From: Candidatus Eiseniibacteriota bacterium
Lineage (GTDB): Bacteria > Eisenbacteria > RBG-16-71-46 > CAIMUX01 > VGJL01
Direction: 5' to 3'
DNA length: 64,000 bases
Assembly: GCA_963792585.1 (NCBI GenBank)
Contig: CAWBWI010000002.1
Location: 128,001-192,000, forward strand
How positions within the stretch are numbered: position 1 is the first letter of the stretch; each line of letters begins with the position of its first letter. Positions 1-16,453 of this stretch are shown here, piece after piece. The notes below the pieces were generated by a model. It did not search any database. It was not told the origin of the DNA and saw only the letters and a program-made list of their open reading frames with translations. The position numbers were made by a program, and so were the translations under genes.

Positions 1-375
1 CGGCGGGAAGCCGTCGCCGTCCAACTCCTCGAAGGAGACGATGCCGATATTCACGGCATCCCGGAGGGCGCGGGCCTTCGCCCGGGTCTCGGCCATGCGG
101 ATCAGGTGCGGGACGATGAAGGAGTTGACGTTCTCGGGAGTGGCATCGCCAATCCCGTCGAACCGCCCCTTCTTCGTTTCGACCAGAGCCTTGGCGATCG
201 CTGTCCGGCCGTTTTCGTCCGTGGGGACTTGGACAAGCCGAGTCGCGATCCGTTGCAGGCCCTCGTCATGGGCCTTGGAAAGCAGCCCCTGATAGGTGAC
301 CACCTCCTTGGTGCCGACGACGCGGCCGGTGCGGTCCTTGATCTCGATCGTGCGGATGAGGCCGTTCTGGCTCAT
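1..375 (-). CDS. Rad52/Rad22-like single-strand annealing protein (partial, runs off window)
   Basis: Manual translation from ATG at 375 (RBS AGGAGG): MSQNGLIRTIEIKDRTG...VTYQGLLSKAHDEGL...AIAKALVE...FDGIGDATPENVNSFIVPHLIRMAETRAKARALRDAVNIG. The 'RMAETRA-ARALR' motif is typical of phage/MGE Rad52-like SSAPs. Not in the ORF track. Confidence 0.7.
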   Translation of the reverse strand, partial: MSQNGLIRTIEIKDRTGRVVGTKEVVTYQGLLSKAHDEGLQRIATRLVQVPTDENGRTAIAKALVETKKGRFDGIGDATPENVNSFIVPHLIRMAETRAKARALRDAVNIGIVSFEELDGDGFPP

Positions 376-633
376 GGAAACACCTCCTGTGTCGTGGGGG
401 AATTGGGAAAGGGCAGATGGATGGAGAGCGAGTCTCCGAGATTCACGGTACGGGAGGTAGGGTGTTTGATGAAGGGAGGGGGATGTGCCGTTCTGCACAC
501 ATCCTGTGGATAAATGGTAAGATGCCTCGGTTAGGGCCCAGAAGCCTAGGAGAGCATCAGATCCGCGGCAACGTCCGCTCGCCTGGTGGAGCAATCAGAC
601 GCGGTCCAGGGACTCGAGGATGGGCACCTTCTT

Positions 634-2028
634 ATGAGAGACATGCTCTTCGTCAGCCATGCGAACCCGGAAGACAACGAGGCGGCTCGGTGGTTGTCGC
701 TACAACTTGCGCGGGAAGGGTACCCGGTCTGGTGCGATCTCACTAAGTTGCTCGGTGGCGAGGACTTCTGGCGGGATGCCGAACAGGCTATCCGAGAGCG
801 TACGGCCAAATTCCTATACGTTCTTTCACGTGTATCAAACGTGAAGTCCGGACCAATCGACGAGCTGCAAGTAGCCAAGAATGTCGCCCGAGAATTGCGC
901 CTCGCTGACTTCATCGTCCCGCTCCGTTTCGATGATCTGCCTCCCCGCGATGCAAATATCAGACTGACGAACCTCAACATGGTGCCATTTCAGGCTAGTT
1001 GGATTTCCGGGCTGGCCCAGCTCCTCAAGAAGCTCGAAGAGGACGGAGTAGCGAAGGATCCGCGGTTCACACCACGGACAGTCGCAAGTTGGTGGCGGCA
1101 CTACTACCGCAGGGAGCGGGCACTGCGAGCCACAAGAGAGCAGCTCGTCTCGAACTGGTTCCAGATTTTGGATCCGGTGGCCCTGCAGTTCCACTTGCTT
1201 CGCTCAAGCGAAGAACATCACCCCTTGCAACTACCGGACGATTTGCCATACCCCGCAGTCCAATACGGTGAGTATCTTGTCTCCTTCGCAGGAGCGGGTG
1301 ATTTCAGTGATCATCTCGGACCCACACTTTCGATTATCGAATCAGAGGCAATAGAGATCAGCCGGACAACTGAGGCGGCCCGCCTTCTGAAATGGACAGG
1401 CGAACAGGAGTACAATGCCTTGGTGCGACTGCTAGATCTGACGTGGCGAAGATTCCTTTCCGGTCAGAAGCTCCCGCTCTGTTCTTTTGCGAACCACGTG
1501 GTGGCCATGTACTTCAAGGCCGGGACGGCGCGGGGCGGCCGCGTACTGCCGCCACGTCGCAACGGACGGCAAACATATCGGCAGGTGGTGGGTTTCCAAA
1601 CCGTTCGGAAGGCGACCGCCGAAACTCCAGCCAAGCTTCGACACTGGCACTTCGCTCTCGAAGCGCGGCCACTAGTTCATCCGTTCTTGGGCTACGCCAT
1701 GAAACCTCACGTCGTCTTCTCCGACGACGGCGAGGCAATCTGGGGGAACGTTGATCTCATGCACCGCGCTCGGCGCAGTCAGTGCCGGAACTGGTGGAAC
1801 GATGAATGGCGCGATCGGATTCTGGGAACGGTATCCTGGCTTGCAGGTGAAGCCGAGTTCATCAACCTGTGCGTGGGATCTGACCGGCGACTACGGTTAC
1901 GCGCGCTGCCAATGACGGTCACGTCGCCCGTTTCCTACGACAACTCTGACTTCCAGGGGCCACCCGTAGATGAGGACGAGGATGAAGCGGTCGAAGACGA
2001 CATCGAGCCAGAAGAACCACGAGCGTAG
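634..2028 (+). CDS. TIR-APAZ NADase of a SPARTA system
   Basis: N-terminal TIR (LFVSHANPED...WLSLQL...GYPVWCD; catalytic Glu in PIDELQVA). C-terminal APAZ motifs (WHFA, ARRSQCRNWWNDEWRDR). Directly upstream of a short pAgo. ATG 634 preferred as start. Confidence 0.92.
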   Translation: MRDMLFVSHANPEDNEAARWLSLQLAREGYPVWCDLTKLLGGEDFWRDAEQAIRERTAKFLYVLSRVSNVKSGPIDELQVAKNVARELRLADFIVPLRFDDLPPRDANIRLTNLNMVPFQASWISGLAQLLKKLEEDGVAKDPRFTPRTVASWWRHYYRRERALRATREQLVSNWFQILDPVALQFHLLRSSEEHHPLQLPDDLPYPAVQYGEYLVSFAGAGDFSDHLGPTLSIIESEAIEISRTTEAARLLKWTGEQEYNALVRLLDLTWRRFLSGQKLPLCSFANHVVAMYFKAGTARGGRVLPPRRNGRQTYRQVVGFQTVRKATAETPAKLRHWHFALEARPLVHPFLGYAMKPHVVFSDDGEAIWGNVDLMHRARRSQCRNWWNDEWRDRILGTVSWLAGEAEFINLCVGSDRRLRLRALPMTVTSPVSYDNSDFQGPPVDEDEDEAVEDDIEPEEPRA

Positions 2029-2080
2029 ACAGGACAATCGGGAGCGGGCCCGACGGTCCCCGAGCCACGGACGTAACGAG

Positions 2081-3592
2081 GTGATTGTCCTGTCGGAGCC
2101 GGCGATACTCTTCGGGCATGGTCAGGCTGTAGAAGACCCGCGCGACGGGTTGACCCTGTTCGGCCCGTTGGACGAAGGCGCCCCCTATGGGCTTCGCGTT
2201 GGAGTCATCGGCACTGAGCAAGGGCTCGACCTGTATCGCTCATGGGTGGGCCGTATTCAGGGACCGCTTGCCAACAAGGCCGGATCTGTCTTCTCCGATC
2301 CGCCATTCCCCGGGTTTGAGTCCGTATTCCGCATTCCATGGTCACCAACGCCGACCCTGGCCGTGACTCTCGATGCCGGCGAGCTCGACCGGATCGTCCA
2401 TTTCGGCGATGCGCACCAGCGGGTCTTTAGCACGGTCAGCCTGTTTGCCGACCGCATTGCGAGGGCGGCCCGCACCGAGGACACGCCGGTCGACTTCTGG
2501 TTTGTCGTCATCCCTAACGTCGTCTACGATAATTGCCGGCCTAGATCGGTAGTTCCCTTTGCGGTGCGGACGCAGGATGAGGCGGTTCCCTATATCCGTG
2601 CGCAGCAAGCCAAGGGCCTTCTGAAGCAGCCATCCCTATTCCCCCAAGACCATGAGGCGGCGGCACCTTACTACTACGAGGTGGATTTCCACAACCAGTT
2701 GAAGGCCAGGTTGTTGCCGCATCTTGCGCCGACACAGATCGTCAAAGAAAGCACGCTTTCATTCCCGCCGCCCGAAATCCGTCTCCCGCTGAGCAGAGAC
2801 AAGCGCCGACTTCAAGCGGCTGTCGCCTGGAGCCTCACATCGGCCGCGTTCTATAAAGCCGGCGGTCGCCCGTGGAAGATCGCGAGCATCCGCGATGGCG
2901 TGTGTTACATCGGTTTGGTATTCAAGCAGGATATTACGCAGGCGGATCCGCGGATGGCATGTTGCGCGGCTCAGATGTTTCTTGATTCCGGCGATGGTGT
3001 CGTCTTCCGAGGCGCAGTTGGCCCATGGCTTGTCCCGGACCGACAGGTGTTTCATCTCAGTCGCTCTGCTGCCCGCGAACTGGTTACCATGGCAGTGTCC
3101 GCCTACAAGGACAAGGTTGGCCGGCCGCCAAGTGAACTCTTCATTCACGGCAAGGCGTTCTTTGAAGATGATGAATGGGGCGGCTTCCAGGAAAGCGTCG
3201 ATCCGTCGGTAACTAACCTCGTCGGCGTCCGTATTCGGGAGGAGCGCGACTTGCGGCTGTACCGGCCGGGCACGCACCCGGTCCTCCGTGGTACTGCGTA
3301 CACGCGCAATCGGCATTCGGCATATCTCTGGACCAGGGGATTTGCTCCCCAGCTTCGGACATATGTTGGCCGCGAGGTCCCGAGACCGCTGCGGATCGAT
3401 GTTTTGCGAGGGGAGGTCGAACTCCCCATCGTCCTCGCCGACATTCTTGCGCTCACGAAGCTGAACTTCAATACGTGCATCTTCGCGGATGGCATACCGG
3501 TCACACTAAGATTCGCAGACGCCGTTGGAGAGATTCTCACTGCGGGGCCCGTAGGTCAGAAAAACCCGCTGGCGTTCAAGTACTACATTTGA
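2081..3592 (+). CDS. Short prokaryotic Argonaute (MID-PIWI), SPARTA
   Basis: EPAILFGHGQ..EDPRDGLTLFGP, FHNQLKARLL, YKAGGRPWK, CCAAQMFLDSGDG, LTKLNFN, FKYYI C-terminus. Start uncertain (GTG 2081; ORF is open from 1970). Confidence 0.93.
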   Translation: MIVLSEPAILFGHGQAVEDPRDGLTLFGPLDEGAPYGLRVGVIGTEQGLDLYRSWVGRIQGPLANKAGSVFSDPPFPGFESVFRIPWSPTPTLAVTLDAGELDRIVHFGDAHQRVFSTVSLFADRIARAARTEDTPVDFWFVVIPNVVYDNCRPRSVVPFAVRTQDEAVPYIRAQQAKGLLKQPSLFPQDHEAAAPYYYEVDFHNQLKARLLPHLAPTQIVKESTLSFPPPEIRLPLSRDKRRLQAAVAWSLTSAAFYKAGGRPWKIASIRDGVCYIGLVFKQDITQADPRMACCAAQMFLDSGDGVVFRGAVGPWLVPDRQVFHLSRSAARELVTMAVSAYKDKVGRPPSELFIHGKAFFEDDEWGGFQESVDPSVTNLVGVRIREERDLRLYRPGTHPVLRGTAYTRNRHSAYLWTRGFAPQLRTYVGREVPRPLRIDVLRGEVELPIVLADILALTKLNFNTCIFADGIPVTLRFADAVGEILTAGPVGQKNPLAFKYYI

Positions 3593-3599
3593 TCTCAGA

Positions 3600-3842
3600 T
3601 CACCCTTCCTCTGCGCCAATGGGTTCAGGACGTGATTGCCTTCGGACAGCGATGGCAACCGCCAGCGCATCGAACATGCGGAGCCAGTACTTGTTCCTCG
3701 GCTTGAACCCGAGCGCCGGATGCAGCGTTTCCTTCGGCAGCTTCGCCGGCAAGGACTCGAACCCCATCGCCACGATTGCCTGGGCGACGCGGTGTTTCGC
3801 TCGGGGAACGGGGGCCACGATCGTCGACGCGGTATGTTTCAA
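3600..3842 (-). pseudogene. C-terminal remnant of a RuvC-like nuclease (paralog of 4549-5055)
   Basis: KLPKETLHPALGFKPRNKYWLRMFDALAVAIAVR aligns with KLPEEPPHPFLGYKPKDKYWLHMFDALAVALAVR. The N-terminal DPG motif is absent. Confidence 0.8.
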
Positions 3843-4090
3843 CCCGGCGCTCTTGTCGTGACGGGCGCACCTCCGCTAGCGTTCAGGCGAGCCCTCGGGG
3901 GAACTCGAGCAAGCCACTGGCGTATAGCAGATCGAGACGTCTGAAGGCCTCGCCCCGAACCGCCGCGGGATCGACTCTCGAAACCGTGACCTTCCACGTT
4001 TCCGGTCGAATGAGGTACGTAATGAAGCGTGGCTTCGCCCGGATCGTTCCTCTTCGTGAGACCAGGCCGCCATCCGCCGGAATCGGGAGC

Positions 4091-4510
4091 ATGCTGCCTC
4101 AGGGCCTTCCCGTCCTGGTCATGGTCCTCTGCGCCTGCGGATCCAGTCCGCGTCCACGGTCCGTCCCACCCTACCCCGAGAGCCTGACGGGGGAGGCCCA
4201 GACGACCTATGTGAGCTACATCACGGCCGTGCAGGCCGGGCGGGAGCCGGTGGACGACTTCACGATCCCGCCCCGGTATTGGACAGAGGCCGTCCGGGCG
4301 CTGCACCCACTCAGGGTCTACGTGCACGAGACTAACGTAGCCGTCGTCCAGAAGATGGTCGGGGACGTGGAGCATGGGATCTATATCTCAGTCCCGGTGT
4401 CGTCCTACCTGCCCCGATCGGGCGACGACGGATTCGAGTTCACTCCTGATCCCCGGACCGCCCGGCGGGTCACCGGTATCTACGAGTTCCGGAGGACGAA
4501 GACCCGATAG
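4091..4510 (+). CDS. Hypothetical lipoprotein
   Basis: ATG after GGGAG, hydrophobic stretch and lipobox-like VLCAC. Confidence 0.55.
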   Translation: MLPQGLPVLVMVLCACGSSPRPRSVPPYPESLTGEAQTTYVSYITAVQAGREPVDDFTIPPRYWTEAVRALHPLRVYVHETNVAVVQKMVGDVEHGIYISVPVSSYLPRSGDDGFEFTPDPRTARRVTGIYEFRRTKTR

Positions 4511-4548
4511 TCCCCACTTGGCCGGCGATGACGTGCCTCCGGAACCGG

Positions 4549-5055
4549 TCAGTGATTCCGGACCGCCAGCGCCACCGCCAGCGCATCGAACATGTGGAGC
4601 CAATACTTGTCCTTGGGCTTATAGCCAAGGAAGGGGTGAGGCGGTTCCTCCGGGAGCTTCACAGCTAGGGCCGGAAACAGTTTGATGAGCGCCAGTGCGA
4701 CATCGAGCTTCTTGGCGTGCTGATTGCCAACGACGATCCGACGGACCTCCCGGGGTGAGATCTCAACGACCCTCAGCCCGACCTCCCGAGAACGGGCATG
4801 GAGTTCCTGCGCGATGACCGAGACAAGCGCGGCGCGTTGGGTGGGGAACAGTAGGGGTTTCTCGATCGCCACGATCGATGGTGCGTAGTCCTCAACGTAT
4901 CCAAGCACGACCCGGCGAGCCTGCCCGATCACGTCATTCGGCCGCTCGCCGTTCTTCAGCGTCTTGACACCGAAGGCGAGAAGCGTGGCGCCCTGAATGA
5001 CGGCGATGCCCATCTCCTTGGTGCCGGGATCAATACCCAAGATGATCTCCTCCAT
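4549..5055 (-). CDS. RuvC-like (RNase H fold) nuclease/resolvase, copy 2
   Basis: ILGIDPGTKEMGIAVI, IAIEKP, ISPREVR, AKKLDV, HMFDALAVA. Confidence 0.85.
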   Translation of the reverse strand: MEEIILGIDPGTKEMGIAVIQGATLLAFGVKTLKNGERPNDVIGQARRVVLGYVEDYAPSIVAIEKPLLFPTQRAALVSVIAQELHARSREVGLRVVEISPREVRRIVVGNQHAKKLDVALALIKLFPALAVKLPEEPPHPFLGYKPKDKYWLHMFDALAVALAVRNH

Positions 5056-5099
5056 GATGTTTGTGGGTGTGTTACGGATGTAAGCGCGTGCGAGGTGGT

Positions 5100-5227
5100 G
5101 CCCTCCCGATGAAGACCGCGACGGTGCGGGCTCCGTCTTGCTCGGGATTCCCGCGGTTGTCCGCGGCGGCGGTCCGCAAGATGAAGGCCGCCTGACGACT
5201 CAGCCGAAGAATCGGCTGCGGGAGGGC
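5100..5227 (-). other. Highly structured intergenic element between the two RuvC-like genes (candidate ncRNA or ssDNA structure)
   Basis: 9-bp closing stem (5100-5108/5219-5227), three internal hairpins and a 12-nt direct repeat GATGAAGRCCGC. Confidence 0.45.
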
Positions 5228-5236
5228 GGGTGATGC

Positions 5237-5737
5237 TCAGGCCGATTGGGCCTGATGGTGAAGGGCCAAGGCGACAGCATCAAACATGTTCTGGAAGTAG
5301 GCTTCCTTCCAGCGCCGGTCCTGCGTGAGATAGACCCGCAGGGCGGGCAGGCGCCAAGCGACCGCCTCGGCTGTCTGGCGTTTGTTGGCCCAGCCATGGC
5401 CAACGATGGACTTCCGGACGGTCTGGGGTGCGTAGCTGGCGACCGAGACGCCTTTGAGCATCGCCAGCCTTCGGATCCGCCGGGCCAGTTGCTCAAGCCG
5501 GTTGAGCGAGCTGATCCCGTTCCGATGCGTCGCCTCAATCACCACGACCGCGGGACGAAAGTGACCGATCCAGCCGTTGACCGCCTGGACGGCGGCCGGA
5601 AAGCGACGGCGAGGCGGAAGGAACCGAAGGGGATAGACCCCGGACTCGATCAGACTCCGGCCGCGAACAATGGCATACCCGAGATCCCGGAGACCGGGAT
5701 CAAGGGCGAGGATTGTCTTCACTGTGGCTTTGGGCAT
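5237..5737 (-). CDS. RuvC-like nuclease/resolvase, copy 1
   Basis: ILALDPGLRDLGYAIV, VVIEAT, YAPQTVRK, ANKRQT, NMFDAVALA. Start ATG 5737. Confidence 0.85.
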   Translation of the reverse strand: MPKATVKTILALDPGLRDLGYAIVRGRSLIESGVYPLRFLPPRRRFPAAVQAVNGWIGHFRPAVVVIEATHRNGISSLNRLEQLARRIRRLAMLKGVSVASYAPQTVRKSIVGHGWANKRQTAEAVAWRLPALRVYLTQDRRWKEAYFQNMFDAVALALHHQAQSA

Positions 5738-6254
5738 GGCGTTTGAGAAGGTAAAGAAATAAGGCGGTGCGCGATCGGCGGATCTCTCCAGCCGGGACGG
5801 CGAGGGTGCCGGCCAGCGCGCGTTTGATGGTCTCATCATCATGGGCCTCGAGCGCCGATTCAAGTGACGCCCGGTTGCCGGCCTCTCCTAGCGCCCGTTC
5901 GAGCTTTCCGGCCGTGAAGAACCGCTTGGGAGCCGGCGGGGATTCCGCCTGAACCGGCGCTTCGGGAAGATGCCGGATCGTCACGCGGAGGGCTTGCCCG
6001 GACCGCTCCAGGCTCACGTACCGTCGTGTTCGCAGATGCCCGAGCCAGCTTCGAACGGTTTCGGCAGGAACCCCCATGGCGGAAGCGATCTCCGCCGGGT
6101 CCAGGTCCAGCGCGTTCTGTTTGGCGGGCAGTCGGGCCAAGAGGCCTAGGTAGAGCCAGACGGCGGAGTGCATGCGGTGGATGTGGAGCGCCTGGGGATG
6201 CTCCAGGAGTCCGCGGTCGAATCGGATCGTGATCGGCATGGCTTGACGGGTCAT
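5700..6254 (-). CDS. wHTH Rep/replisome-organiser-like protein, paralog B
   Basis: AVWLYLGLL...EIASAMGVPAETVRSWLGHL HTH. C-terminal IRRSRTALFLYLL is shared with the upstream gene. ATGA coupling. Confidence 0.6.
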   Translation of the reverse strand: MTRQAMPITIRFDRGLLEHPQALHIHRMHSAVWLYLGLLARLPAKQNALDLDPAEIASAMGVPAETVRSWLGHLRTRRYVSLERSGQALRVTIRHLPEAPVQAESPPAPKRFFTAGKLERALGEAGNRASLESALEAHDDETIKRALAGTLAVPAGEIRRSRTALFLYLLKRHAQSHSEDNPRP

Positions 6255-6865
6255 CGGTCGGTCTTGTCGTTAGCGATGAGATAGCGGAACAGGGCGAGGC
6301 GGGACTTGCGAATCCGGTCCGCTGGCGTGCGCCGCACCCGCTCCAGCACGCGGGCGACATGCGCAGCGGTATGCCGCGACAGGATCGTCGGCAGCTCGGC
6401 CACGATCGCGGGCCCGACTGCCTCCAGGGCAAGCTTGCGAAGCGCCCCTTCCCCCGCACCCCCATCCCCGATAGCTATAGCCTGATTGCCTAATAGCTTA
6501 TTGCTCTGATAGCTATAGCTATCTTCCATATGTGCCTTCGGAAAAGCCTCGGAATGGCTCGGATTCTCGCGCTCGGACGGGCTTTCGCCAGACCACGAAA
6601 CGAGGCGGGCGACAAGGTACGGCAGCGGCGAAAGCACGCGGACCAGCCCGGCGGCGACCAGGCGAGAAATCCATCGGTCAATGCGATCTTCCGTCACCTC
6701 GAGTTCACCGGCGAGGCGCACCCGAGTCGCGACCACTGTGCCTTTGGGTCCGGCGCGGCCAATCAAAACCACGTACAGGAACAGACCGTTTCCGATTGAG
6801 TCAACCGAGTGGGGTACACGAATCGCCGCGTCAAGGGCGTGGGTTGGAATACGCCGTCCGGTCAC
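6251..6865 (-). CDS. wHTH Rep/replisome-organiser-like protein, paralog A
   Basis: GLFLYVVLI...RLAGELEVTEDRIDRWISRL HTH, linker encoded by AT-rich repeats, C-terminal IRKSRLALFRYLI. Confidence 0.6.
   Translation of the reverse strand: MTGRRIPTHALDAAIRVPHSVDSIGNGLFLYVVLIGRAGPKGTVVATRVRLAGELEVTEDRIDRWISRLVAAGLVRVLSPLPYLVARLVSWSGESPSERENPSHSEAFPKAHMEDSYSYQSNKLLGNQAIAIGDGGAGEGALRKLALEAVGPAIVAELPTILSRHTAAHVARVLERVRRTPADRIRKSRLALFRYLIANDKTDR
6470..6523. repeat. AT-rich repeats/palindrome inside the Rep-like gene (candidate origin)
   Basis: GATAGCTATAGC at 6470 and 6508. 6508-6523 is a perfect 16-bp palindrome. Confidence 0.55.
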
Positions 6866-7137
6866 TGAGGGTCGGGGTTAGGATCATCATCGTGCTTCGG
6901 GAAGTAGAGCGCGGCATACAGGGACTCGGCCAGAGTGCCGAGTGCGCGAGCCAGGCGGAACACGTCCGGCAGGCTGGGGAGCTTCTGCCCGCGCTCCCAC
7001 GTCCCCACGACCTTGCGACCCCTCCCTATGACCCCTGCCAGCGCGGCTTGATTCAGGCCGGCCCGGAGTCTGTATTCGCGGATGCGGTTCGGAAACCGGA
7101 TCTTGCCGCGGGATCTTCGAAGCGTGAACTGGAGCAT
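6862..7137 (-). CDS. XRE-family HTH regulator
   Basis: NRIREYRLRAGLNQAALAGVIG...VGTWERGQKLPSL. Confidence 0.85.
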   Translation of the reverse strand: MLQFTLRRSRGKIRFPNRIREYRLRAGLNQAALAGVIGRGRKVVGTWERGQKLPSLPDVFRLARALGTLAESLYAALYFPKHDDDPNPDPQ

Positions 7138-7347
7138 GAGTTCAGAATACCGACGCGGAGAACCGCAGAAAAGAGGGGGCGATGTGCACAAATTGGCACT
7201 TCTTGTGGAAAACGATCGCGTGTGGGCCGGTTCGATGCGGACCTTAGCGCAGTTGGTCAGCGGCGGACGTATTTGTTCCCATGAGTTCCTCAATCGGAGC
7301 CATCATCCCCCCTGTGACGGCGCGGGTCACTGTGGCACGATGGAAGC

Positions 7348-7554
7348 ATGCCTCTTCAAAGCGACCCGCAATCAGCCGGGGAAACAACATCCGGACCAGT
7401 GTTGACCGCCCAGGACATCCGCGAATTCCAGGACATCGTGGAATCCGAAACCGGCGTGCGCCTGGAGGACGCGGCGGCGTGGTCGAGCGCAACCGAACTG
7501 ATCGCGCTGTGTCGCATGCTCCTGGGCCGGATCCCGGAAGATCCCGAATCCTAG
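7348..7554 (+). CDS. Small protein upstream of the serine recombinase (possible directionality factor)
   Basis: LTAQDIREFQDIVESETGVRL..AAW..ATELIAL resembles small ORFs I associate with this recombinase type. Function inferred from position only. Confidence 0.55.
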   Translation: MPLQSDPQSAGETTSGPVLTAQDIREFQDIVESETGVRLEDAAAWSSATELIALCRMLLGRIPEDPES

Positions 7555-7652
7555 CGATGTTTCGCGAGTTCGAACGTCGTCCCGACTTGTGCGTTTTCCG
7601 ATTTAACGGGACAATGACTTCCGCCTTTTCAACTTCTCTGTTTCAACGTCCC

Positions 7653-9269
7653 ATGCCTGTCTACGTCATCTATGCCCGGAAATCCACCGAGTCCGAGGAC
7701 CGGCAAGTCCTCTCGATCGACTCGCAGATTCGAGAGCTACAGTCGCTCGCTCAGAATCGAGGGATTGCCGTGTCCGAGGTTCTCACGGAGTCCCATTCTG
7801 CGAAAGCTCCGGGCCGGCCCGTGTTCGGGGCGCTCATGCGCCGCATCGGTCGCGGCGAGATCCGCGGCGTTGTCTGCTGGAAGATGGACCGATTGGCTCG
7901 GAATCACTTCGACACCGGGTCGATTCTTCAGGCACTTGCGGACGGCAAGCTGCAGGAAGTCATCACCTCGGACCGCGCCTATACCCGCGACGGAAATGAC
8001 CGCTTCATGGGCAATTTCGAGCTGGGCATGGCGACGAAGTTCATCGACGACCTGCGGGCGAACGTGAAGCGCGGTAACCGGGCACGCCTTGCGCGCGGGT
8101 GGGCGAACTACGTACCGCCCCTCGGCTACCTGAACGACGTCGGGACGAAGACCGTGGTCAAGGATCCCGAGCGGTTCGACCTCGTCCGGCGGATGTGGGA
8201 CCTGGTGCTCACGGACTCCCTCCGACCATCCCAGATCTTACGCACGGCGAACGAAGAGTGGGGGTTCCGGACAAGGCGTTTCAAACGTACCGGGGGCAAC
8301 CGGCTCTCAAAGTCCGTGCTCTACAGCCTCTTCCAGAATCCGTTCTACTTGGGCATCATCCGCCTGAAGTCCGGCGAGACGTTTGTCGGCGCACACCCGC
8401 CGATGGTCAGCCGCGAGGAATTCGACCGCGTTCAGGAGACCATCGGACGACCCGGGCGGCCGCGCCCAAAGTCGCACGAGTTCCCGCTCACCGGCATCAT
8501 CCAGTGCGGCAACTGCGGCGGGTCGGTGACCGCCGAAGAACACGTCAAACCCTCGGGCCGACGCTACGTCTACTACCATTGTTCCCACAACCGCCTGCAT
8601 GTCCCCTGTCGGGAGCCGTCGGTGTCCGAGCGCGTGCTCGAAGAGCAGATCGTCGCGCTTCTGGAGCGCCTCACGATTCCGCAGCGTGTCCTCACCTGGA
8701 TTCTGAAGAAGGTCACGGCCTCGATTCACGCCGAAGCCGCCCGGCGCGTGGCGTCACGGGCGATGCTTGAAGCCGCGTTGGCCGATGCGACTCGGGAATC
8801 AGAGAATCTTCTCGCCCTCCGTCTTCGGGACCTCGTCTCGGATGAAGTGTTCCTCCGGAAGAAGCGGGACATCGAAGAACGCCGGGCCAGGCTAAGCGCG
8901 CAGGTTGGCGCCCCGGCGAAGACGCAGGAGGAGCTCACGTCGCAAACGGAGAAGATGATCGCGTTCGCTTCTCGTACCGCGGAGCTCTACCGCTCAGGGA
9001 CGACAGTTCAGCGGCGCATGATCCTGAAAGCGGTTCAGTCGAACTCGACGTTGCAGGGAAGAAAACTGCTAATCCAACTCAAAAGACCGTTCCGGATGAT
9101 TGCCGAGGCGGGCTCTTGTTCTAACTGGCAGCGCACGCCGGAGGACGTCAGAACGTGGATCCAAGATACGACCGAGTACTTGGCCGTGCCCGATTTCTCA
9201 AAACTCCCCCAAGATTCAGGACAAGAAGCGACCGCACGCTTTCACGAAACCATGATTTCCCAACCCTAA
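7653..9269 (+). CDS. Large serine recombinase (resolvase + recombinase + Zn ribbon + coiled coil)
   Basis: IYARKSTESEDRQ catalytic Ser, WKMDRLARN, PPLGY, CGNCG...YYHC...C zinc ribbon. Confidence 0.95.
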   Translation: MPVYVIYARKSTESEDRQVLSIDSQIRELQSLAQNRGIAVSEVLTESHSAKAPGRPVFGALMRRIGRGEIRGVVCWKMDRLARNHFDTGSILQALADGKLQEVITSDRAYTRDGNDRFMGNFELGMATKFIDDLRANVKRGNRARLARGWANYVPPLGYLNDVGTKTVVKDPERFDLVRRMWDLVLTDSLRPSQILRTANEEWGFRTRRFKRTGGNRLSKSVLYSLFQNPFYLGIIRLKSGETFVGAHPPMVSREEFDRVQETIGRPGRPRPKSHEFPLTGIIQCGNCGGSVTAEEHVKPSGRRYVYYHCSHNRLHVPCREPSVSERVLEEQIVALLERLTIPQRVLTWILKKVTASIHAEAARRVASRAMLEAALADATRESENLLALRLRDLVSDEVFLRKKRDIEERRARLSAQVGAPAKTQEELTSQTEKMIAFASRTAELYRSGTTVQRRMILKAVQSNSTLQGRKLLIQLKRPFRMIAEAGSCSNWQRTPEDVRTWIQDTTEYLAVPDFSKLPQDSGQEATARFHETMISQP

Positions 9270-9437
9270 CAAGGGGGCGGAGGTGCCGCTCCGATGTCAG
9301 GTTGTGGACAACTCTAAGCGCGTTTGAACGAGCAAGGCCGGACGAAAGCTGGCAACTCGTTGAGCATTCAGCGACCCGAAGCCATTTGCCGATGGAGCAA
9401 ACCCCATGATATACTCCTATCACATGACCCAACCAAT

Positions 9438-9737
9438 ATGGCTCAAGCACTTACAAAGGCAGGTCTCACCGCGCTCCGAAAGGGGCTAGAGGCGTCATTC
9501 CACAGCGAAGTTCGCGACCCCCTGGTGGATCACTTCAATCGCAGCCAGGGTGGGCAGAATCAGCGGCTTGAGGGGATCGAGCAGCACTTTGATGGTGTCG
9601 ACCGTCGCTTCGATGAGGTGGATGCGAAGCTCTCCGCGATCATGGAGATGTTCGCCACCCGTCAGGAGTTACGCGCCCTTGTCCGAGAGCTCAAAGCTCG
9701 CGGTATCGCCCTGGATGAGAGCCGGATCTTGGCGTGA
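9438..9737 (+). CDS. Small coiled-coil hypothetical protein
   Basis: Heptad pattern RLEGIEQHFDGVDRRFDEVDAKL. Confidence 0.6.
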   Translation: MAQALTKAGLTALRKGLEASFHSEVRDPLVDHFNRSQGGQNQRLEGIEQHFDGVDRRFDEVDAKLSAIMEMFATRQELRALVRELKARGIALDESRILA

Positions 9738-9855
9738 GCGCCGCAGGGTTCTTCGCTCTGCTGGGCTTCTGAATGATGACGTCCTACAAACGAGAGCGTA
9801 GTATGACAGTGCACTTTGACATAATGTTCTCCTGCCCCTGTTGCGTCGACTGTCG

Positions 9856-11112
9856 TCAGGGATCCGCTTCACCGCCGCTTCCATCCTTCTCACGGGACCA
9901 GGTCCGGGCAGCCTTCTCCCACGTCGCCTGCGCATGCTTCGCCTCCAAGTGTGTTCGTACAATATCTTGATCACAACTCTCCGAAATCACGATCCCTCCT
10001 TGCTCGGGATTAAGGGAGGCAAGAACACGCCAGATTGCTTTCGCTACGCCCTGACACTTATCCGCTTCACTGACAACCTTGTCGTCACTCATGCCCTTCT
10101 GTTGCGCAGACGCATCCCAGGTGATCCCCGCAACACCCACGGAAGCGGACACGACGACCGCCCTTGGCGCACCAGTCCTCATTGTCGTGCCCTCAAGAGC
10201 CTCTCGAACAATCCGCTCGAACGTCACTTTGTCCAGGCCAGAGGCGAGAACCACGAACTCGTCACCCCCTCTACGGCATACCCAGCATTGTCCTCCCTCC
10301 TTCATCACCTCCAGTGCAACATGTTCTCGGAGTCGTCTGCCAATCTCACAGAGTAGGTCGTCGCCCGCGTCATGGTTGAGCCTATCATTCACGTCCTTAA
10401 ATCTGTTGATGTCCAGATACGCGCACAGCACGCCGGGTTCTCCTGCCGCTTTCAGCCTTGGGATTGTGTCGTCTACAAAACGGCGGCTTAGAACACCCGC
10501 TTCGCCGGTTAGAGGGTCATAGTAGACCAGTCGAAGCATCGTCATCACGGTTCCGATGAGGTTCCCCAACGCCAGGAAGAACCTGCACACCTCCTCGCGG
10601 GCGAATGCCTTGCTTGCCCAACTGTCAACGCTCAGGATGCCGGCCAACCTCCGCTCGACAAGGGACGTGCGCCGATGCGGGATCGCGACGCAGACGGGAA
10701 CGTAGAGCACCGATGTCGGCGAGCGGGACGTTACTTCTTCGAGCACCTGCCGTTGGTCGACCTCAAGGTCCCTGACGGTCGCAATGTAGTATCCCTGCCG
10801 TCTCTCAATCCCTGCCGGCAGGGGCTCCCCGCACTCGGCATCGACGACAGCCCAAAGGAGCCCCCGTGGTCGGCGAACGGTTCCGCGTCCACGGAGGAGT
10901 TCGCTGCCACCCGGACTCAGTTCGGTGGGATCGGACACCGAGTACCAATTGACGCGCCCGGCCTTGCCGTCGTCGACGATGGTTGTCACGAGCAGTACGC
11001 TTAGTGCGTCACTCAAGATCGGAAGAGCGGAATTCGCTGCATCCTGGACGACTGCCGCGACCCAAGGGAACTCAAGGTCTCGCATGACGTCTGGAAAGAT
11101 GGACGTATTCAT
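9856..11112 (-). CDS. Diguanylate cyclase (GAF-like + GGDEF)
   Basis: YDPLTG, YLDINRFKDVNDRLNHDAGDDLL, RRGGDEFVVL. RBS GGAGG. Confidence 0.9.
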   Translation of the reverse strand: MNTSIFPDVMRDLEFPWVAAVVQDAANSALPILSDALSVLLVTTIVDDGKAGRVNWYSVSDPTELSPGGSELLRGRGTVRRPRGLLWAVVDAECGEPLPAGIERRQGYYIATVRDLEVDQRQVLEEVTSRSPTSVLYVPVCVAIPHRRTSLVERRLAGILSVDSWASKAFAREEVCRFFLALGNLIGTVMTMLRLVYYDPLTGEAGVLSRRFVDDTIPRLKAAGEPGVLCAYLDINRFKDVNDRLNHDAGDDLLCEIGRRLREHVALEVMKEGGQCWVCRRGGDEFVVLASGLDKVTFERIVREALEGTTMRTGAPRAVVVSASVGVAGITWDASAQQKGMSDDKVVSEADKCQGVAKAIWRVLASLNPEQGGIVISESCDQDIVRTHLEAKHAQATWEKAARTWSREKDGSGGEADP

Positions 11113-11220
11113 AAGTCGCCTCCCGAGGAGTCCTGAGGTCGAGAAACGGTATCGAAGGTGGCTTCGTGCAGCATGAAGATTGCCGGATTAGGGTTGGTAG
11201 TAACATGATAGGAGAATTCC

Positions 11221-11493
11221 ATGACACGAGAGGACGACCTCCACCTTGCAGCGCTGCTAGCCCGGCTACTGCCGGAGCCTGCAATCGCAACGGCCTGTCT
11301 GTATTTGGCAAAGCGGTCCGGTAATGAGCAGCTATACTGGTCGTTCATGAAGGACTGGCTCGCCGCCCATCCTGGGGGCATTACTTACTTCCTCCCCGCA
11401 CCGCTTAGCGTCTTCGCTCCCGAGTTTCTTCGGGCGTTTCTGAAAGCGAATCCTGCCCTGCTCGTGCCGTGGAATGCTCGACATGGCTCCTGA
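11221..11493 (+). CDS. Hypothetical protein
   Basis: AGGAG RBS, protein-like composition, divergent from the GGDEF gene. Confidence 0.5.
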   Translation: MTREDDLHLAALLARLLPEPAIATACLYLAKRSGNEQLYWSFMKDWLAAHPGGITYFLPAPLSVFAPEFLRAFLKANPALLVPWNARHGS

Positions 11494-11830
11494 TCTCTAC
11501 ATCGCACCCCGTCAGTCCCGCTCAGCAGCACCCCATCTTGACACTCGCGTCCACTCCGGGTAAAATACCTATGCTGGTCGATACCCTGTTCCAGGAGGTG
11601 GAAGATGGATGGTTTGTTGACTGATTGGATTGGAGAGGGACTTGTACATTAGGGCGCTTATGAACGCCGATTGCCCGAAGGCAAGCGCCGACCCGGGTTT
11701 GCCTCGCTGGACCGGCATCACGGTGATTGTCACGGGCATGGCCTTGCCCTTCTTGCTCATTCTGGCATTTCTGTTGGAAGTACTTCTTGCCTAGGACGGC
11801 TGGAGGCTTCTGCAGCACGCAACACAGGAA

Positions 11831-11856
11831 CACCCACCACGCACGAGGTGGGTGGT
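11831..11856. terminator. Hairpin downstream of the 11879 gene
   Basis: CACCCACC-N8-GGTGGGTG with short T-rich flanks. Confidence 0.45.
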
Positions 11857-11878
11857 TTTCTTGTTGGACGGAGTTCAC

Positions 11879-12910
11879 TTAGGCGCCTATCCATAAGGTG
11901 TTGAAAGCGCCAGGCACGGCGGCGACCCAGCCGCTCGCATCCGTATCCTTGGTCAGCTCAACCACGAGACTCCACCCTGTAAGCCGTGAGTAGCCTTCAC
12001 CTAGAGTTGCCAGGAGGAGGCAGTTTCCGATGAGCGCGAAGTCGAGGTAGACACCGGAACCGTAGCTGTACCGTTCCGCGTGAACGGGCCTGCAGATCAT
12101 TGGTGACTGGTTGCGGTGGGCACAGATGCTGTCGATCTTCGCCCTGTAGTCCCGGTCACGGTCATAGTCGGTCTTGCGGTAGAACAGGATGTTACGGATG
12201 GTAACGCCATGTTGCGTTGCTTCCTGGCACACCCGCTCCGTGAAGTTCTGGTAGAAGGTCGCTCTGAGGATGTCTGCGTCTAGGAAACTCGTCATCAGGA
12301 CTTCCGCACCGCTGGGGAGTGCCTGAATCCGGGCGATGATCTCATCGGCGTACTTGGTTGCCCCCCGAAAGGTACGAACTTTGTCATAGGGGCCGAGAGC
12401 AGTTTCCCATTCAAGCAGGCGGTTCCGCACGTGCTCGCGAACGGGCTTGGCATCCACGACCGTGGAGATGCGTGAAGCGCTTCGGGCCAGTCCGGCAAGA
12501 GGGTCGGCGAAGTCGTTGCGACACAGACCAATCCAGACTGATCGCGTCGACAAGAAGCGAAGAAGGTCAACAAGGGGAATCCGAGCCATTTCAGCCTTTC
12601 CTCTACGGCACGGCCGAATGAGCCACACGGACCACGGCCGAGCGATCGAGAAATACACGCCAACGAGGATGAGGATGATCCTGAGGAAGGGCCACCTGTG
12701 AATGAGCCCGCGCCTCAAGTCAGTGAGAGCGGCAGCTATCTCGGCTGGTGGCCCCGACCAGATCCAGGTCGCGCAGGTGAATGCGAATCCCATGGCAAAC
12801 CAGCCAAGGAGAATGGATCCAACCCCGAGCCACCACCGCCTGGGCAGGCATGCCGCCCGACATAAAAGGACATCACGCAGGAGCCTTGTCCCGTTGAGCA
12901 TTGCTCTCAT
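11879..12910 (-). CDS. 2-TM protein with a C-terminal PLD/TrmB-like-fold domain (no HKD motif seen)
   Basis: Two hydrophobic helices, GVTIRNIL, DFALIG, FNTLWIGA end. Start uncertain. Confidence 0.5.
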   Translation of the reverse strand: MRAMLNGTRLLRDVLLCRAACLPRRWWLGVGSILLGWFAMGFAFTCATWIWSGPPAEIAAALTDLRRGLIHRWPFLRIILILVGVYFSIARPWSVWLIRPCRRGKAEMARIPLVDLLRFLSTRSVWIGLCRNDFADPLAGLARSASRISTVVDAKPVREHVRNRLLEWETALGPYDKVRTFRGATKYADEIIARIQALPSGAEVLMTSFLDADILRATFYQNFTERVCQEATQHGVTIRNILFYRKTDYDRDRDYRAKIDSICAHRNQSPMICRPVHAERYSYGSGVYLDFALIGNCLLLATLGEGYSRLTGWSLVVELTKDTDASGWVAAVPGAFNTLWIGA

Positions 12911-13064
12911 CACTCCAAGCCTGTGAGAAGCTTGGCTGTGGGGGAGAGGTGGATGAGTCGGTGGGCACCCCACCAATGCGTACGGAGTCGTTGGATAGGG
13001 GAGTGTAGGTCCAGCTCTTGGTTCCGGGCTGCGGGCCAACCCAACGAGCTGGTGACGGCACCCT

Positions 13065-13793
13065 TCATGTGCTGGTTGTCCCTCCTGCGGACGCAGAGCC
13101 GTTGCCTTGATGGGGGGTGCCCTCCGGATGCAGCGGCGTCTCGATGATCGATCCGTGGTCGCAACGATAGACTCGGTCAGCCTTTCGAGCGACCTCCAGG
13201 TCTTGCTCAACAATCAGTACGGCCTTGTCGGCCGCACGCTCCCGTGGCCTGACCCAGTCTAGAAGATCATCGACGAAGGTTCTTGCTAGCCCCAGCGTCG
13301 GCTCATCAAGCAATACGAGCGTGTCTCTCTGCCCAAGGCCGCACGTGAGCGCCAGGACCTGCTTCTCGCCGGCGCTCAGTGTCGCAGCGAGCTGCCGACT
13401 CCTGGGGGCTTTGAGCCAAGGCCACGTGTGCTCATGAGCGAAAGCTGCCACGCAAGCCGAGTTGCTGACCAGACGGAGGTTCTCCTTTACAGTGAGGTTC
13501 CGGAAGACTCGTCCACTTTGGGGCACGTAGGCAATTCCACGACGCGAACGCTTCCATGTCGGCATCAATCCGATATCTTCACCTCGATGCCGAACGACCC
13601 CTGACCACATTGGCACAAGCCCCATGATTGCCCGCAGGAGCGTTGTCTTGCCGGAACCATTGTCGCCGATGACCGCCACGACTTCTCCCGCATGAAGCGT
13701 CAGATTCACGCCGCGCAGGACTTCGTGCCTGCCGTAGCCAGCCTTCAGTGATTCGACCTGGAGGATCGGAGTCGTCGGTACTCGTTCATCCAT
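13065..13793 (-). CDS. livF: Branched-chain amino acid-type ABC ATPase (LivF-like)
   Basis: GDNGSGKTT, LSAGEKQ, LLDEPTLGLA, LIVEQ. Confidence 0.85.
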   Translation of the reverse strand: MDERVPTTPILQVESLKAGYGRHEVLRGVNLTLHAGEVVAVIGDNGSGKTTLLRAIMGLVPMWSGVVRHRGEDIGLMPTWKRSRRGIAYVPQSGRVFRNLTVKENLRLVSNSACVAAFAHEHTWPWLKAPRSRQLAATLSAGEKQVLALTCGLGQRDTLVLLDEPTLGLARTFVDDLLDWVRPRERAADKAVLIVEQDLEVARKADRVYRCDHGSIIETPLHPEGTPHQGNGSASAGGTTST

Positions 13794-14514
13794 TGGGGAA
13801 CCTAGCCCTTGGGAGAATGGCAGCCGCAGGGCCGACCCCTTGCACCTTGCCGTCCGCGAGAAGGACGACCGTATCTGCGATACCCTCCACGACGTGGAGG
13901 AGGTGCTCAATCAGGAGAATCGCAAGACCGTCCGCGCGTGCCACTTTGAGTCTGGTAAGTATGACATCGACCGTGCGGTCGAAGATGCCTGACACCGGCT
14001 CGTCGAGGAAGAGGGCCCTAGTACTGCCCGCGAGACAGGTCGCGAGCGAAAGAAGCTTCCTTTGCCCATAGGAGAGCTCCAAGACTTGTCTGTCACGGAG
14101 GTCCGTCAGGCCGAAGTCCCGAAGCAGGGCAACGGCCGCCTCCATGGATGCTGTGTCAGGTTCTGACCACCAGCGTTTGACGATCCTTCCAGGGTCGGCT
14201 TGACCGAGGAGGACGTGATCCAATACCGTCATCTTCTCGATGACGCGCACCTCTTGGAATGTCCGGCGGATCCCGCGGTGCTCGAGTTCCCACGGCGGGA
14301 GCCCGGAGATCCGTTCGTCCTCGATGTAGATCTGGCCCTCGTCCGGCCGAAGGAATCCTGTGAGGATGTTGAGGAGCGTCGTCTTTCCAGAACCGTTTAG
14401 TCCCACGAGCGCCGTGATGGTCCCCGGTTCGAGTGTTACGCTCACGTTGTCTAGGGCGAGAACGCCGTCGAAGCGCTTCGTCACGCCCTCCGCTCGCAAG
14501 AATGCGGCGCACAT
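13786..14514 (-). CDS. livG: ABC ATPase (LivG-like)
   Basis: GLNGSGKTT, RTFQ, LSYGQRK, LDEP, LIEH. Confidence 0.85.
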   Translation of the reverse strand: MCAAFLRAEGVTKRFDGVLALDNVSVTLEPGTITALVGLNGSGKTTLLNILTGFLRPDEGQIYIEDERISGLPPWELEHRGIRRTFQEVRVIEKMTVLDHVLLGQADPGRIVKRWWSEPDTASMEAAVALLRDFGLTDLRDRQVLELSYGQRKLLSLATCLAGSTRALFLDEPVSGIFDRTVDVILTRLKVARADGLAILLIEHLLHVVEGIADTVVLLADGKVQGVGPAAAILPRARFPNG

Positions 14515-14515
14515 C

Positions 14516-15424
14516 CTACCAGCTCCCCCGCCTTGGCTCGAACGAGAACGTGCCGAGGAGACCCTGCGGCCGCAGGCGCATGAGGAATACTAGCAAGAGC
14601 CCGAAGAGCAGCTCTCTCACTCGAGAGGCGGAGGCTATGTCGAGACCGACAAAGCGGAGCCCCTCGGGGAACAAAACGAGCACGAGGGCACCGAGCACGG
14701 CGCCCGCGGGACGTCCGGCGCCCCCGAGGATTACCATGGCCAGGAAGAGAATGGACTGGTTCACCCCGAAAGTCGTCGGATCGATGAAGCCTATGTGGGC
14801 GGCGAGAATCCCTCCGGCGAGGCCAGCCTCTCCCGCGGCCACAGCAACGGCAATGACCTTGACCCGAGGAACATTCCTGCCAAGAGATGCCGTAAGGATC
14901 TCGTCCTCACGGATTGCCCGCCACACCCTACCCGTCGGTGCGCGGGTCAGTCGCGTGTGGAGCCAGAGCAGAAGTCCTACGAGCGCGACGGAGAGACACG
15001 GCAGGACGAGTGGCGAGTCAGGCAGGACCAGCCACCCTCGACTGCTGGCGGATGCGATTCCCAACGGCCCGCCGGTGAGCATGCCCAGATTGTTGAGTAG
15101 TTGGATAGCGATGAGTTGGAGTCCAAGTGTCGCGATGGCGAAGTAGTCTTCATGGGTCCGTAGGGAGGCGAGACCGACGACCAGACCTCCGAGAATCGCA
15201 GAGACGACTCCGCCGACGAGTGCCAACTCGAGGGGCAGACCGAGACGGGAGGCGAGAATTACGGACCCGTAGCCACCCATGCCGACCATCGCAGCCTGGG
15301 CCGTCGACAGCAGCCCCATTTGCCCCGCGACGATGTCGAGGGACAGCGCGACCATGGCGCCGACCGCTGCGAGAATAATGAGGTGTAAAATGTAGTCCAT
15401 AGGCTTAAAGTTCCACGCGCTCAA
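14516..15424 (-). CDS. livM: ABC permease (LivM-like)
   Basis: DYFAIATL, TGGPLGI, AIREDE, RPQGLLG. Confidence 0.88.
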   Translation of the reverse strand: MSAWNFKPMDYILHLIILAAVGAMVALSLDIVAGQMGLLSTAQAAMVGMGGYGSVILASRLGLPLELALVGGVVSAILGGLVVGLASLRTHEDYFAIATLGLQLIAIQLLNNLGMLTGGPLGIASASSRGWLVLPDSPLVLPCLSVALVGLLLWLHTRLTRAPTGRVWRAIREDEILTASLGRNVPRVKVIAVAVAAGEAGLAGGILAAHIGFIDPTTFGVNQSILFLAMVILGGAGRPAGAVLGALVLVLFPEGLRFVGLDIASASRVRELLFGLLLVFLMRLRPQGLLGTFSFEPRRGSW

Positions 15425-16283: not shown

Positions 16284-16453
16284 GATTCCCGGCCGGTTGG
16301 CGGCCCTACCTCTTCCTCTGTCGCTCGCCCTCTTCCGGGGCGAGGGAAGGCCGGAACTCCTCGTTGCGATGTTTCGCTTCTTCTGGTCGTACAGGTGGCC
16401 CGTCAGATTCCGGTCCAGCGAGCACGGCTTGGGTTCGTTTATCCTCCTCCAGC

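Follow-up and report, generated by a model that had tools for sequence, protein, structure and literature searches.

The stretch of DNA considered here, referred to as the window, comprises 64,000 nucleotides (C2:128001-192000) of a 5.4-Mb Candidatus Eiseniibacteriota genome in seven contigs, of which C3 and C4 are also mentioned below. Near its left end, two different genes for RuvC-like proteins lie one behind the other, preceded by two related DNA-binding proteins and divergent from a large serine recombinase. Known RuvC is a symmetric homodimer encoded by a single gene, and the locus raises the question of what kind of element carries such a pair and what the pair does. The interpretation proposed here, to which a probability of about 0.6 is assigned, is that the region is a member of a conserved family of serine-recombinase islands, that its RuvC paralogues likely represent a heterodimeric junction nuclease, and that the island is predicted to excise, to replicate from a likely origin within the gene of its first winged helix-turn-helix (wHTH) protein, wHTH-A, and to reintegrate.

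Based on open reading frame (ORF) listing and family scans, the backbone of the island is composed of the serine recombinase and a small ORF, divergent from an operon encoding an XRE-type regulator, wHTH-A, wHTH-B, RuvC1 and RuvC2, followed by a variable cargo slot and by genes for a protein resembling single-strand annealing proteins (SSAP-like), a Cas4-like exonuclease, RadC and DUF932 (coordinates in Table 1). The recombinase, small ORF, XRE, wHTH-A, wHTH-B, RuvC1 and RuvC2 genes were located where an earlier note on this DNA had placed them. Its term 'coupled' operon is apt, since the XRE and wHTH-A genes overlap by 4 nt, wHTH-A and wHTH-B by 4 nt, and wHTH-B and RuvC1 by 38 nt. The large serine recombinase, which had likewise been recognized, possesses all three domains of its family (PF00239, E 1.3e-18; PF07508, E 9e-9; PF13408, E 7.7e-11) and matches a PHROG integrase with E 8e-76. 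A promoter and terminator scan of positions 3400-9600 gave nothing above shuffles.

Conservation of this arrangement was evaluated within the phylum Candidatus Eisenbacteria / Eiseniibacteriota, to which the close relatives belong according to their record titles. RuvC2 was used as query against 206 genomes of the phylum, and 16 loci from 10 other Eisenbacteria genomes were mapped with the backbone proteins. Wherever RuvC2 matched strongly in the 206 genomes, a RuvC1-type match of lower score preceded it on that strand by 150-200 bp. Of the 16 loci, 15 have RuvC1 directly in front of RuvC2, and the 16th starts 142 bp upstream of RuvC2 at a contig end. Furthermore, wHTH-B was detected in 14 loci, wHTH-A in 14 (one partial), the SSAP-like gene in 13, DUF932 in 13 (two partial or broken) and a divergent upstream recombinase in 12. 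A wider scan of one genome per species, mapped with custom profiles, resulted in 47 loci, in 10 of which hidden Markov model matches to the small ORF were found beside the recombinase. These 47 include eight further loci of the same element type from metagenome-assembled genomes (MAGs), with RuvC1 and RuvC2 adjacent, labelled as Gammaproteobacteria, Binatia, Phycisphaeraceae, Kerfeldbacteria, Acidobacteriota and Betaproteobacteria; taxon labels of MAG loci are as deposited, and the binning may be wrong. Eight metagenome loci likewise show the two genes side by side. The earlier note had held that its reading would fall if the RuvC pairing were not conserved in other genomes; in these three sets of loci it is.

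The same genome harbors a second, diverged copy of the island at C3:597439-623639, which shows an identical gene order, proteins 41-91% identical to those in the window and a different cargo of 18.5 kb. Similarity among copies (three of them in one genome) stops approx. 41 bp past the DUF932 stop codon, just beyond a terminator hairpin, and at the other end within approx. 50 bp past the recombinase stop codon, behind which the copies share a hairpin-like motif, GGGG.GGAGGT. From these limits, the backbone in question extends over approx. C2:125620-137320, i.e., window positions -2380 to 9320.

The sharp ends of similarity indicate a unit of 6-20 kb. They also bear on the question of whether the locus represents the early (replication-recombination) region of an ordinary phage, stripped of structural genes, or a prophage that has become defective, an explanation for which matches to PHROG families of RuvC-like resolvases, exonucleases, integrases and repressors, the viral nature of the Atlas clusters nearest to the SSAP-like protein, and one relative on an IMG/VR contig can be cited. 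It is considered very unlikely, since copies within one genome cease to resemble each other directly past DUF932 and the recombinase, and since, in the loci mapped with the backbone models, genes for capsid, portal and terminase proteins are missing up to a distance of 10 kb from the module. Genes for capsid, portal, terminase and tail proteins were absent from C2:108-140 kb and from the cargo of 12 elements. Moreover, tblastn with RuvC2 returned only two weak matches (30-32% identity) in 50,697 phage records, and the RuvC1 profile found one true relative in 2.9 million IMG/VR contigs. That contig (58.7 kb; L104, L106 and L107) has a rated completeness of 98% as a virus and is composite, with the island at one end, followed by helicase and methylase genes and two tyrosine integrases, and then, approx. 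30 kb off, by a Mu-like prophage with repressor, transposase, MuB-like and terminase genes. A PHROG terminase match (phrog_2666) was rejected since it falls on a HerA-type ATPase, and matches to TrwB and FtsK were rejected as conjugation genes for the same reason, the protein being the HerA ATPase of a SIR2-HerA pair. The genes of C2:108-140 kb and C3:586-637 kb that were scanned contain no Pfam family of relaxases, coupling proteins or type IV secretion. The statement of the earlier note that capsid and conjugation genes are missing from the window was borne out only within C2:108-140 kb, the stretch examined. The note had also named an ordinary described prophage replication region as an outcome that would refute it, and neither the phage records nor IMG/VR contained a counterpart of that kind. 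Since neither of its two refutation tests went against it, the designation 'uncharacterised integrative element' stands, supported by the conserved pairing and the lack of a described prophage counterpart.

Within this element, the RuvC pair departs from known systems. Both proteins exceed the gathering cut-off of the Pfam RuvC family (22.2 bits), are 28% identical to each other and match the phage RuvC-like PHROGs 159 and 1770. Their assignment as RuvC-like, the retention of the D, the E and the FDA aspartate in both copies, and the Pro-rich insert in RuvC2 were already described in the earlier note and were recovered in the alignment. Both proteins score far below the cut-offs of the NCBIfam equivalogs of canonical cellular RuvC (TIGR00228, 41.7 and 29.2 bits against a cut-off of 100.65; NF000711, 35.5 and 38.0 against 163). 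With respect to the four metal-binding residues (D, E, D/H, D), RuvC2 is complete, and its D9, E65, H154 and D157 are invariant in 17/17 orthologues. RuvC1 deviates from this set by an Asn at the third position; its D13, N150 and D153 are invariant in 16/16 sequences and E68 is kept in 15/16. The host's own RuvC, encoded at C4:180439-180831, reads D-E-D-D.

A sister family of elements, in which the layout is XRE, one wHTH gene, RuvC, RuvC and DUF932, provides a second view of the same pairing. Its two RuvC genes abut in tandem in 16/16 loci, which originate from MAGs labelled as Syntrophobacteraceae, Thermodesulfobacteriota, Desulfarculales, Aminicenantes, Sumerlaeota, Thermoguttaceae and Planctomycetaceae, and in three cases as Deltaproteobacteria only. 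Residues were compared for 15 of the 16 loci, L074 being left out because its downstream copy is split. The downstream protein reads D-E-N-D in 15/15 loci, and in the upstream protein all four positions are replaced (N, K, R/K, E) in 13/15, the remaining two reading D-E-S-D. A maximum-likelihood tree from a quick search places each of the four RuvC groups on one side of a branch (SH-aLRT 85-97) but does not settle their mutual branching order; a long branch with 100% support separates all of them from 20 host RuvCs. The D-E-N-D protein is the constant member of these pairs and always occurs with a sister copy that may be dead. An obligate pair would be expected to show such a pattern, which is read here as a heterodimer: RuvC1 and RuvC2 likely form a putative heterodimeric nuclease, as judged from their genes.

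Compared with bacterial RuvC (E. coli, Thermus thermophilus) and phage RuvC-like resolvases, both island proteins agree in their Pfam and PHROG matches and in size (approx. 165 aa), and RuvC2 shares the D-E-H-D set of the Thermus enzyme. The differences are that two old paralogues are always encoded together, that the third residue of RuvC1 is Asn, and that a sister family possesses a fully degenerate partner. XPF-ERCC1 and Mus81-Eme1 are paired nucleases in which one subunit is dead, and the likeness to them consists in active and degenerate sister subunits kept together over long evolutionary time. Those enzymes are of another fold and from another domain of life, and the pairing of the RuvC proteins is predicted from their genes.

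It is also possible, if somewhat unlikely, that no heterodimer exists and that each protein works alone, RuvC2 for example as a homodimeric resolvase and RuvC1 (or the dead sister copy) in a DNA-binding or regulatory role. The complete D-E-H-D set of RuvC2, with which it could act alone as a homodimer, fits this explanation, as do the incomplete congruence of the RuvC1 and RuvC2 trees and a regulatory-looking RNA between the two genes in place of translational coupling. The trees disagree for L039 and L045, which suggests that RuvC1 and RuvC2 can be reshuffled between lineages. However, the two genes co-occur in all testable loci, namely 15/15 uncut loci of the phylum, 8/8 metagenome loci and 16/16 loci of the sister family. 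Moreover, only the D-E-N-D type keeps acidic catalytic residues in the sister family, and yet its dead partner is conserved across several phyla, a pattern matching XPF-ERCC1 and Mus81-Eme1. An obligate pair remains the preferred explanation for the RuvC proteins.

The RNA mentioned above is located in the spacer between RuvC1 and RuvC2. This spacer is alignable across elements, and folds of single sequences agree on a four-way junction consisting of an invariant closing stem CCCUCCCG/CGGGAGGG (P1), a hairpin P2, a hairpin P3 with CUUGC in its loop, and a long hairpin P4/P5 with GCAAG in its loop. With a covariance model (R1), 25 matches reached E 1e-7 or better, each of them between RuvC1 and RuvC2 on the sense strand; the best match scored 110.9 bits compared with 20.7 for its reverse strand. 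A metagenome scan for the closing stem yielded 80 loci with DNA, of which R1 matched eight, and these alone have RuvC1 and RuvC2 on either side. The remaining 72 loci are unrelated sequences without RuvC genes. The pattern GCCCTCCCG...CGGGAGGGC alone was rejected as a marker of the RNA, being unspecific in view of these 72/80 loci; no Rfam match was obtained in 20 of them that were scanned.

In alignment A11 (28 sequences), 92.0% of cells pair, as opposed to 38-47% with partners slid, and 21 of 34 pairs show compensatory change; the observed values were reached by 0/500 shuffles, and G-U pairs are frequent. Since A11 was fitted to the model, these pairing counts lean towards the structure; a first, unfitted RNAalifold run already showed compensatory change in P2. 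Rfam 15 contained no match at 5096-5231 with E up to 1 (scan of window positions 1-12000), and R1 did not match the sister-family loci L069-L084, where the RuvC genes abut. The intergenic RNA is regarded as a well-supported candidate for a new RNA family, and its P3 and P4 loops may pair with each other.

The same structure might instead act as single-stranded DNA, for example as an origin, nick site or recombination site. Its position in a mobile element would suit such a function, P1 is conserved in sequence (8/9 pairs never vary) as fits recognition by a sequence-specific protein, and folded DNA tolerates G-T pairs. This alternative appears quite unlikely, since the structure lies within the operon on the coding strand in 33/33 cases and shows many G-U pairs and rich compensatory change of the RNA kind. 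As an RNA, it could speculatively control RuvC2 in cis, possibly by binding the junction nuclease. A bolder version, unlikely as it stands, is that the paralogues are the first bacterial heterodimeric RuvC-type nuclease, built of the universal D-E-N-D protein and a perhaps dead sister, and that the RNA mimics their DNA substrate, either binding the enzyme to set its dosage or forming part of it.

Regarding replication, the earlier note had described the two wHTH proteins as paralogues and Rep-like. The paralogy is evident: with 23-25% identity, the two have the wing-helix part as well as the C-terminal IRxSRxALFxYL motif in common. The wHTH-B family is large and unannotated, with 706 relatives in a word-indexed search and 612 cluster representatives in a HMMER search; HTH_36 was matched in 32 of 84 wHTH relatives scanned. 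PHROG matches of the wHTH proteins are weak (PHROG 270, E 4e-4; PHROG 7498, E 3e-3), and no specific initiator fold stood out in fold searches with the wHTH-B model. The label 'Rep' is unproven for these proteins. The note had furthermore considered a heterodimeric initiator, an idea weakened by the sister family with its single wHTH gene; a wHTH heterodimer is doubtful.

The best support for the Rep-like idea, short of proof, comes from the DNA encoding the wHTH-A linker, a candidate origin in which two AT-rich palindromes are followed by a G-quadruplex (G4) motif. The linker DNA holds the lowest-GC stretch of the gene, and the lowest-GC window is central in 11 of 14 wHTH-A genes. For the palindrome GCTATAGC, two occurrences in the window compare with an expectation of 0.16; the whole 5.4-Mb genome has 12, of which three fall in its two wHTH-A genes. 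The strict G4 pattern was found in 8 of 16 wHTH-A genes, with a looser form in two more, and five times genome-wide. The phage lambda origin lies inside gene O, and the likeness to lambda O consists in a DNA-binding protein encoded early in an operon, whose flexible linker is encoded by AT-rich, repeat-bearing DNA. Unlike the lambda system, the island shows no sequence or specific fold similarity to O, has no P-like loader or helicase gene, and carries the G-quadruplex motif after the repeats.

The slot between RuvC2 and the SSAP-like gene accommodates variable cargo. RuvC2 and the SSAP-like gene are 54 bp apart in L055 and 386 bp apart in L063, spacings that identify the site as a cargo slot which can be empty; its size ranges from 54 bp (L055) to 9 kb. 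In the window the slot contains a SPARTA anti-phage defence system, which the earlier note had not reported: the ORFs for the TIR-APAZ protein and the short prokaryotic Argonaute (pAgo) are adjacent and overlap by 59 nt. The note does not mention the RuvC2 remnant, the intergenic RNA, the Asn of RuvC1 or the candidate origin either. Two further elements, L046 and L067, have this SPARTA gene pair at 52-70% identity, likewise placed in the slot and oriented alike with respect to the operon, which makes three elements with the window. The system itself shows nothing unusual, and what is new is its place in the fixed cargo slot of an island family. Cargo elsewhere includes a TIR protein, DUF4062, ion channels, an M48 peptidase, radical-SAM genes and IS21. 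Family library scans gave no match for the remaining cargo ORF of the window (3776-4510). RuvC2 remnants similar to that in the window are present in the cargo of L054, L059 and L067.

The cargo of the C3 copy (L004/L006, C3:602306-620436) encodes a B12-binding radical SAM enzyme, a class II tRNA-synthetase-like protein, an LD-carboxypeptidase, a glycosyltransferase-like protein, a WYL regulator and an ion channel. In one element, L062 (1436-8307; also L047), approx. 6.6 kb lie between the small ORF/recombinase and XRE, which suggests a second insertion site in the divergent promoter region.

On the far side of the slot, the SSAP-like protein had been called a 'Rad52-like' annealase in the earlier note, a label that could not be upheld. 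The protein is without a Pfam, NCBIfam or PDB match, a profile search against PDB sequences gave chance-level ribosomal S2 only, and its AlphaFold model (14 sequences) is poor, with a predicted local distance difference test (pLDDT) value of 54.9. A single weak Atlas lead points to SSAP_Sak (score 0.86), the nearest Atlas clusters being viral. The SSAP-like gene adjoins the exonuclease gene in 11/16 phylum loci. Left of the window, the backbone continues with the Cas4-like PD-(D/E)XK exonuclease (PDDEXK_1, E 9e-31), RadC (E 4e-38) and a broken copy of DUF932. The arrangement recalls SXT Bet/Exo, in which a PD-(D/E)XK exonuclease also lies beside a small protein of SSAP-like size, within an integrated element with mosaic cargo; the exonuclease of the island is, however, Cas4-like (PDDEXK_1) and not lambda-Exo-like, and the SSAP assignment of the small protein is putative.

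Serine recombinases are also known from SCCmec (CcrA/B/C), the fdxN element (XisF) and phiC31-type phages. With these, the island shares a three-domain recombinase at one end of the unit and a weak NCBIfam similarity to XisF and Ccr, but these matches fall well short of the cut-offs of the families (XisF, 104 bits against 375), and the cargo, the operon and the RuvC pair have no counterpart there.

Pieces of backbone genes also recur at other positions of the genome. The last 111 nt of DUF932 are repeated as diverged copies (79-86% identity) that bracket other genes, in C2 at a distance of 1.8 kb to the left and in C3 at distances of 19 and 31 kb; the positions are 15879-15989 and 17664-17774 in L003 (C2:108001-128000), 17526-17636 in L004, and 2846-2958 and 14812-14885 in L007. 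They could indicate repeated insertion at the DUF932 3' end. A 54-bp piece (L006 5191-5244; C3:591191-591244), 85% identical to the recombinase 3' end (window 9140-9193), is situated 6 kb beyond the C3 recombinase, and a TPR-GreAB-C-PIN protein (1260 aa) and a LexA-like S24 repressor are encoded in between. Together with the RuvC2 remnants of four cargo slots, the DUF932 ends and the recombinase piece look like scars of recombination between related islands.

Among the neighboring genes, a run of defence genes left of the island (C2:108-125.6 kb; L003 approx. 2171-17361) comprises a truncated tyrosine integrase, an Eco57I-like methylase-nuclease (1138 aa), SIR2-TPR, AlbA_2 (Schlafen-like), a SIR2-HerA pair and Mrr. 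Immediately right of the island end, a GGDEF-domain protein (418 aa) is encoded at window positions 9856-11112, followed by ORFs resembling ABC-transporter ATPases at 13065-14514, as assigned by reading the translations. The C3 island is followed downstream, at L005 2457-6746, by the gene of a large RHS-repeat protein (1429 aa).

Table 1. Island features at the left end of the window. Positions refer to the window (position 1 = C2:128001).
Feature	Position	Strand	Remarks
SSAP-like gene, 5' part	1-375, runs on to C2:127692	-	227 aa; 84% identical to the C3 copy
TIR-APAZ protein of SPARTA (cargo)	586-2028	+	PADLOC Aga_TIR-PNTD1-PNTD2, E 5e-118; Pfam TIR_2, E 1.3e-14
Short pAgo of SPARTA (cargo)	1970-3592	+	PADLOC pAgo_I, E 1.2e-189, match starting at residue 36
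RuvC2 3'-end remnant (approx. residues 116-167)	3600-3842	-	76% DNA identity of 3643-3744 to 4559-4660; 60% protein identity
Cargo ORF	3776-4510	+	real start probably internal; coding-like GC pattern
RuvC2	4549-5055	-	Pfam RuvC (PF02075), 39.1 bits; full D-E-H-D set
Four-way-junction RNA motif	5101-5226	-	approx. 120 nt; covariance model; between RuvC1 and RuvC2
RuvC1	5237-5737 (ORF to 5863)	-	Pfam RuvC (PF02075), 52.9 bits; D-E-N-D
wHTH-B	5700-6254	-	winged helix (residues 14-93) and C-terminal four-helix domain; AlphaFold pLDDT 91.8
wHTH-A	6251-6865	-	paralogue of wHTH-B with inserted linker; PHROG 'replication initiation protein', E 4e-4
Candidate origin in wHTH-A linker	6445-6523	-	palindromes GCTATAGC twice (6470-6523), then G-quadruplex motif GGGGATGGGGGTGCGGGGGAAGGGG (6445-6469) with four G-tracts
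XRE-type regulator	6862-7293	-	first operon gene; likely start approx. 7137; HTH_31, E 2.9e-11; orthologues 92-95 aa
Small ORF	7348-7554	+	upstream of the recombinase; 49% identical to its C3 counterpart
Large serine recombinase	ORF 7281-9269, real start approx. 7650	+	Resolvase, Recombinase and Zn_ribbon_recom domains

Several observations weigh against the proposed mobile, self-replicating island with a paired nuclease. Concerning mobility, neither an attachment (att) repeat nor matching inverted arms were found at the unit ends, DNA searches of five other genomes of the family revealed no syntenic empty site, and no circular form of the island was found. The copy in the window may furthermore be decaying: in its DUF932 gene (L003 17661-18395, minus strand) the frame is lost over approx. 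75 codons and a stop follows, which represents either decay or an assembly error in a long-read MAG, and its RadC ORF comprises 167 aa compared with 269 aa in the C3 copy. Concerning the nuclease, the completeness of RuvC2 and the discordant trees described above are to be counted here, and E. coli RuvC D138N is reported to be inactive, so that Asn at the third position may cripple RuvC1. As for the RNA, the P1 stem is without covariation, and the CUUGC/GCAAG loops, though 96.8% complementary, show one compensatory change only, a value reached by 219/500 shuffles. With regard to replication, fold searches with wHTH-B returned generic winged-helix regulators (best Z 9.7), the initiator 4pta (Z 7.9) and the origin recognition complex (Z 7.9) appearing among many regulators; the G4 motif is absent from 6/16 elements, a Gly-rich protein motif could explain part of it, and the backbone is without a helicase, primase or polymerase gene.

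In the mechanism proposed for the island family, the serine recombinase would move the island. wHTH-A would bind the palindromes within its own gene, as lambda O does at its origin, wHTH-B being an accessory paralogue. RuvC1, as the universal subunit, would pair with its sister, i.e., RuvC2 or, in the sister family, the dead N-K-R/K-E copy, giving an asymmetric nuclease for branched DNA arising from replication or recombination of the island. The four-way-junction RNA, part of the mRNA between the RuvC1 and RuvC2 cistrons, would influence the expression of RuvC2 in cis and might do so by binding the junction-specific nuclease. Recombination between related islands would be the task of the SSAP-like protein and the Cas4-like exonuclease, and would account for the exchange of cargo and for the 3' ends of RuvC2 and DUF932 that were left behind.

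No description of this module was found in those parts of the literature that were accessible to searches on the gene combination, RuvC pairs and DUF932; on this basis, neither the paired RuvC genes with their degenerate partner nor the four-way-junction RNA nor the origin-like DNA appears to have been reported before. If the conserved RuvC paralogues do act as a pair, they would constitute a bacterial asymmetric junction nuclease, in contrast to textbook RuvC, which is testable with two small proteins; the shape of the RNA leads to the equally testable hypothesis of an RNA mimic of the Holliday junction. To our knowledge, mobile elements are hardly known in these lineages. The island family is common in uncultured phyla, as indicated by the abundance of wHTH-B relatives and by the presence of the module in MAGs labelled as at least ten phyla, and its fixed cargo slot, occupied by SPARTA in three elements, identifies it as a vehicle for defence genes.

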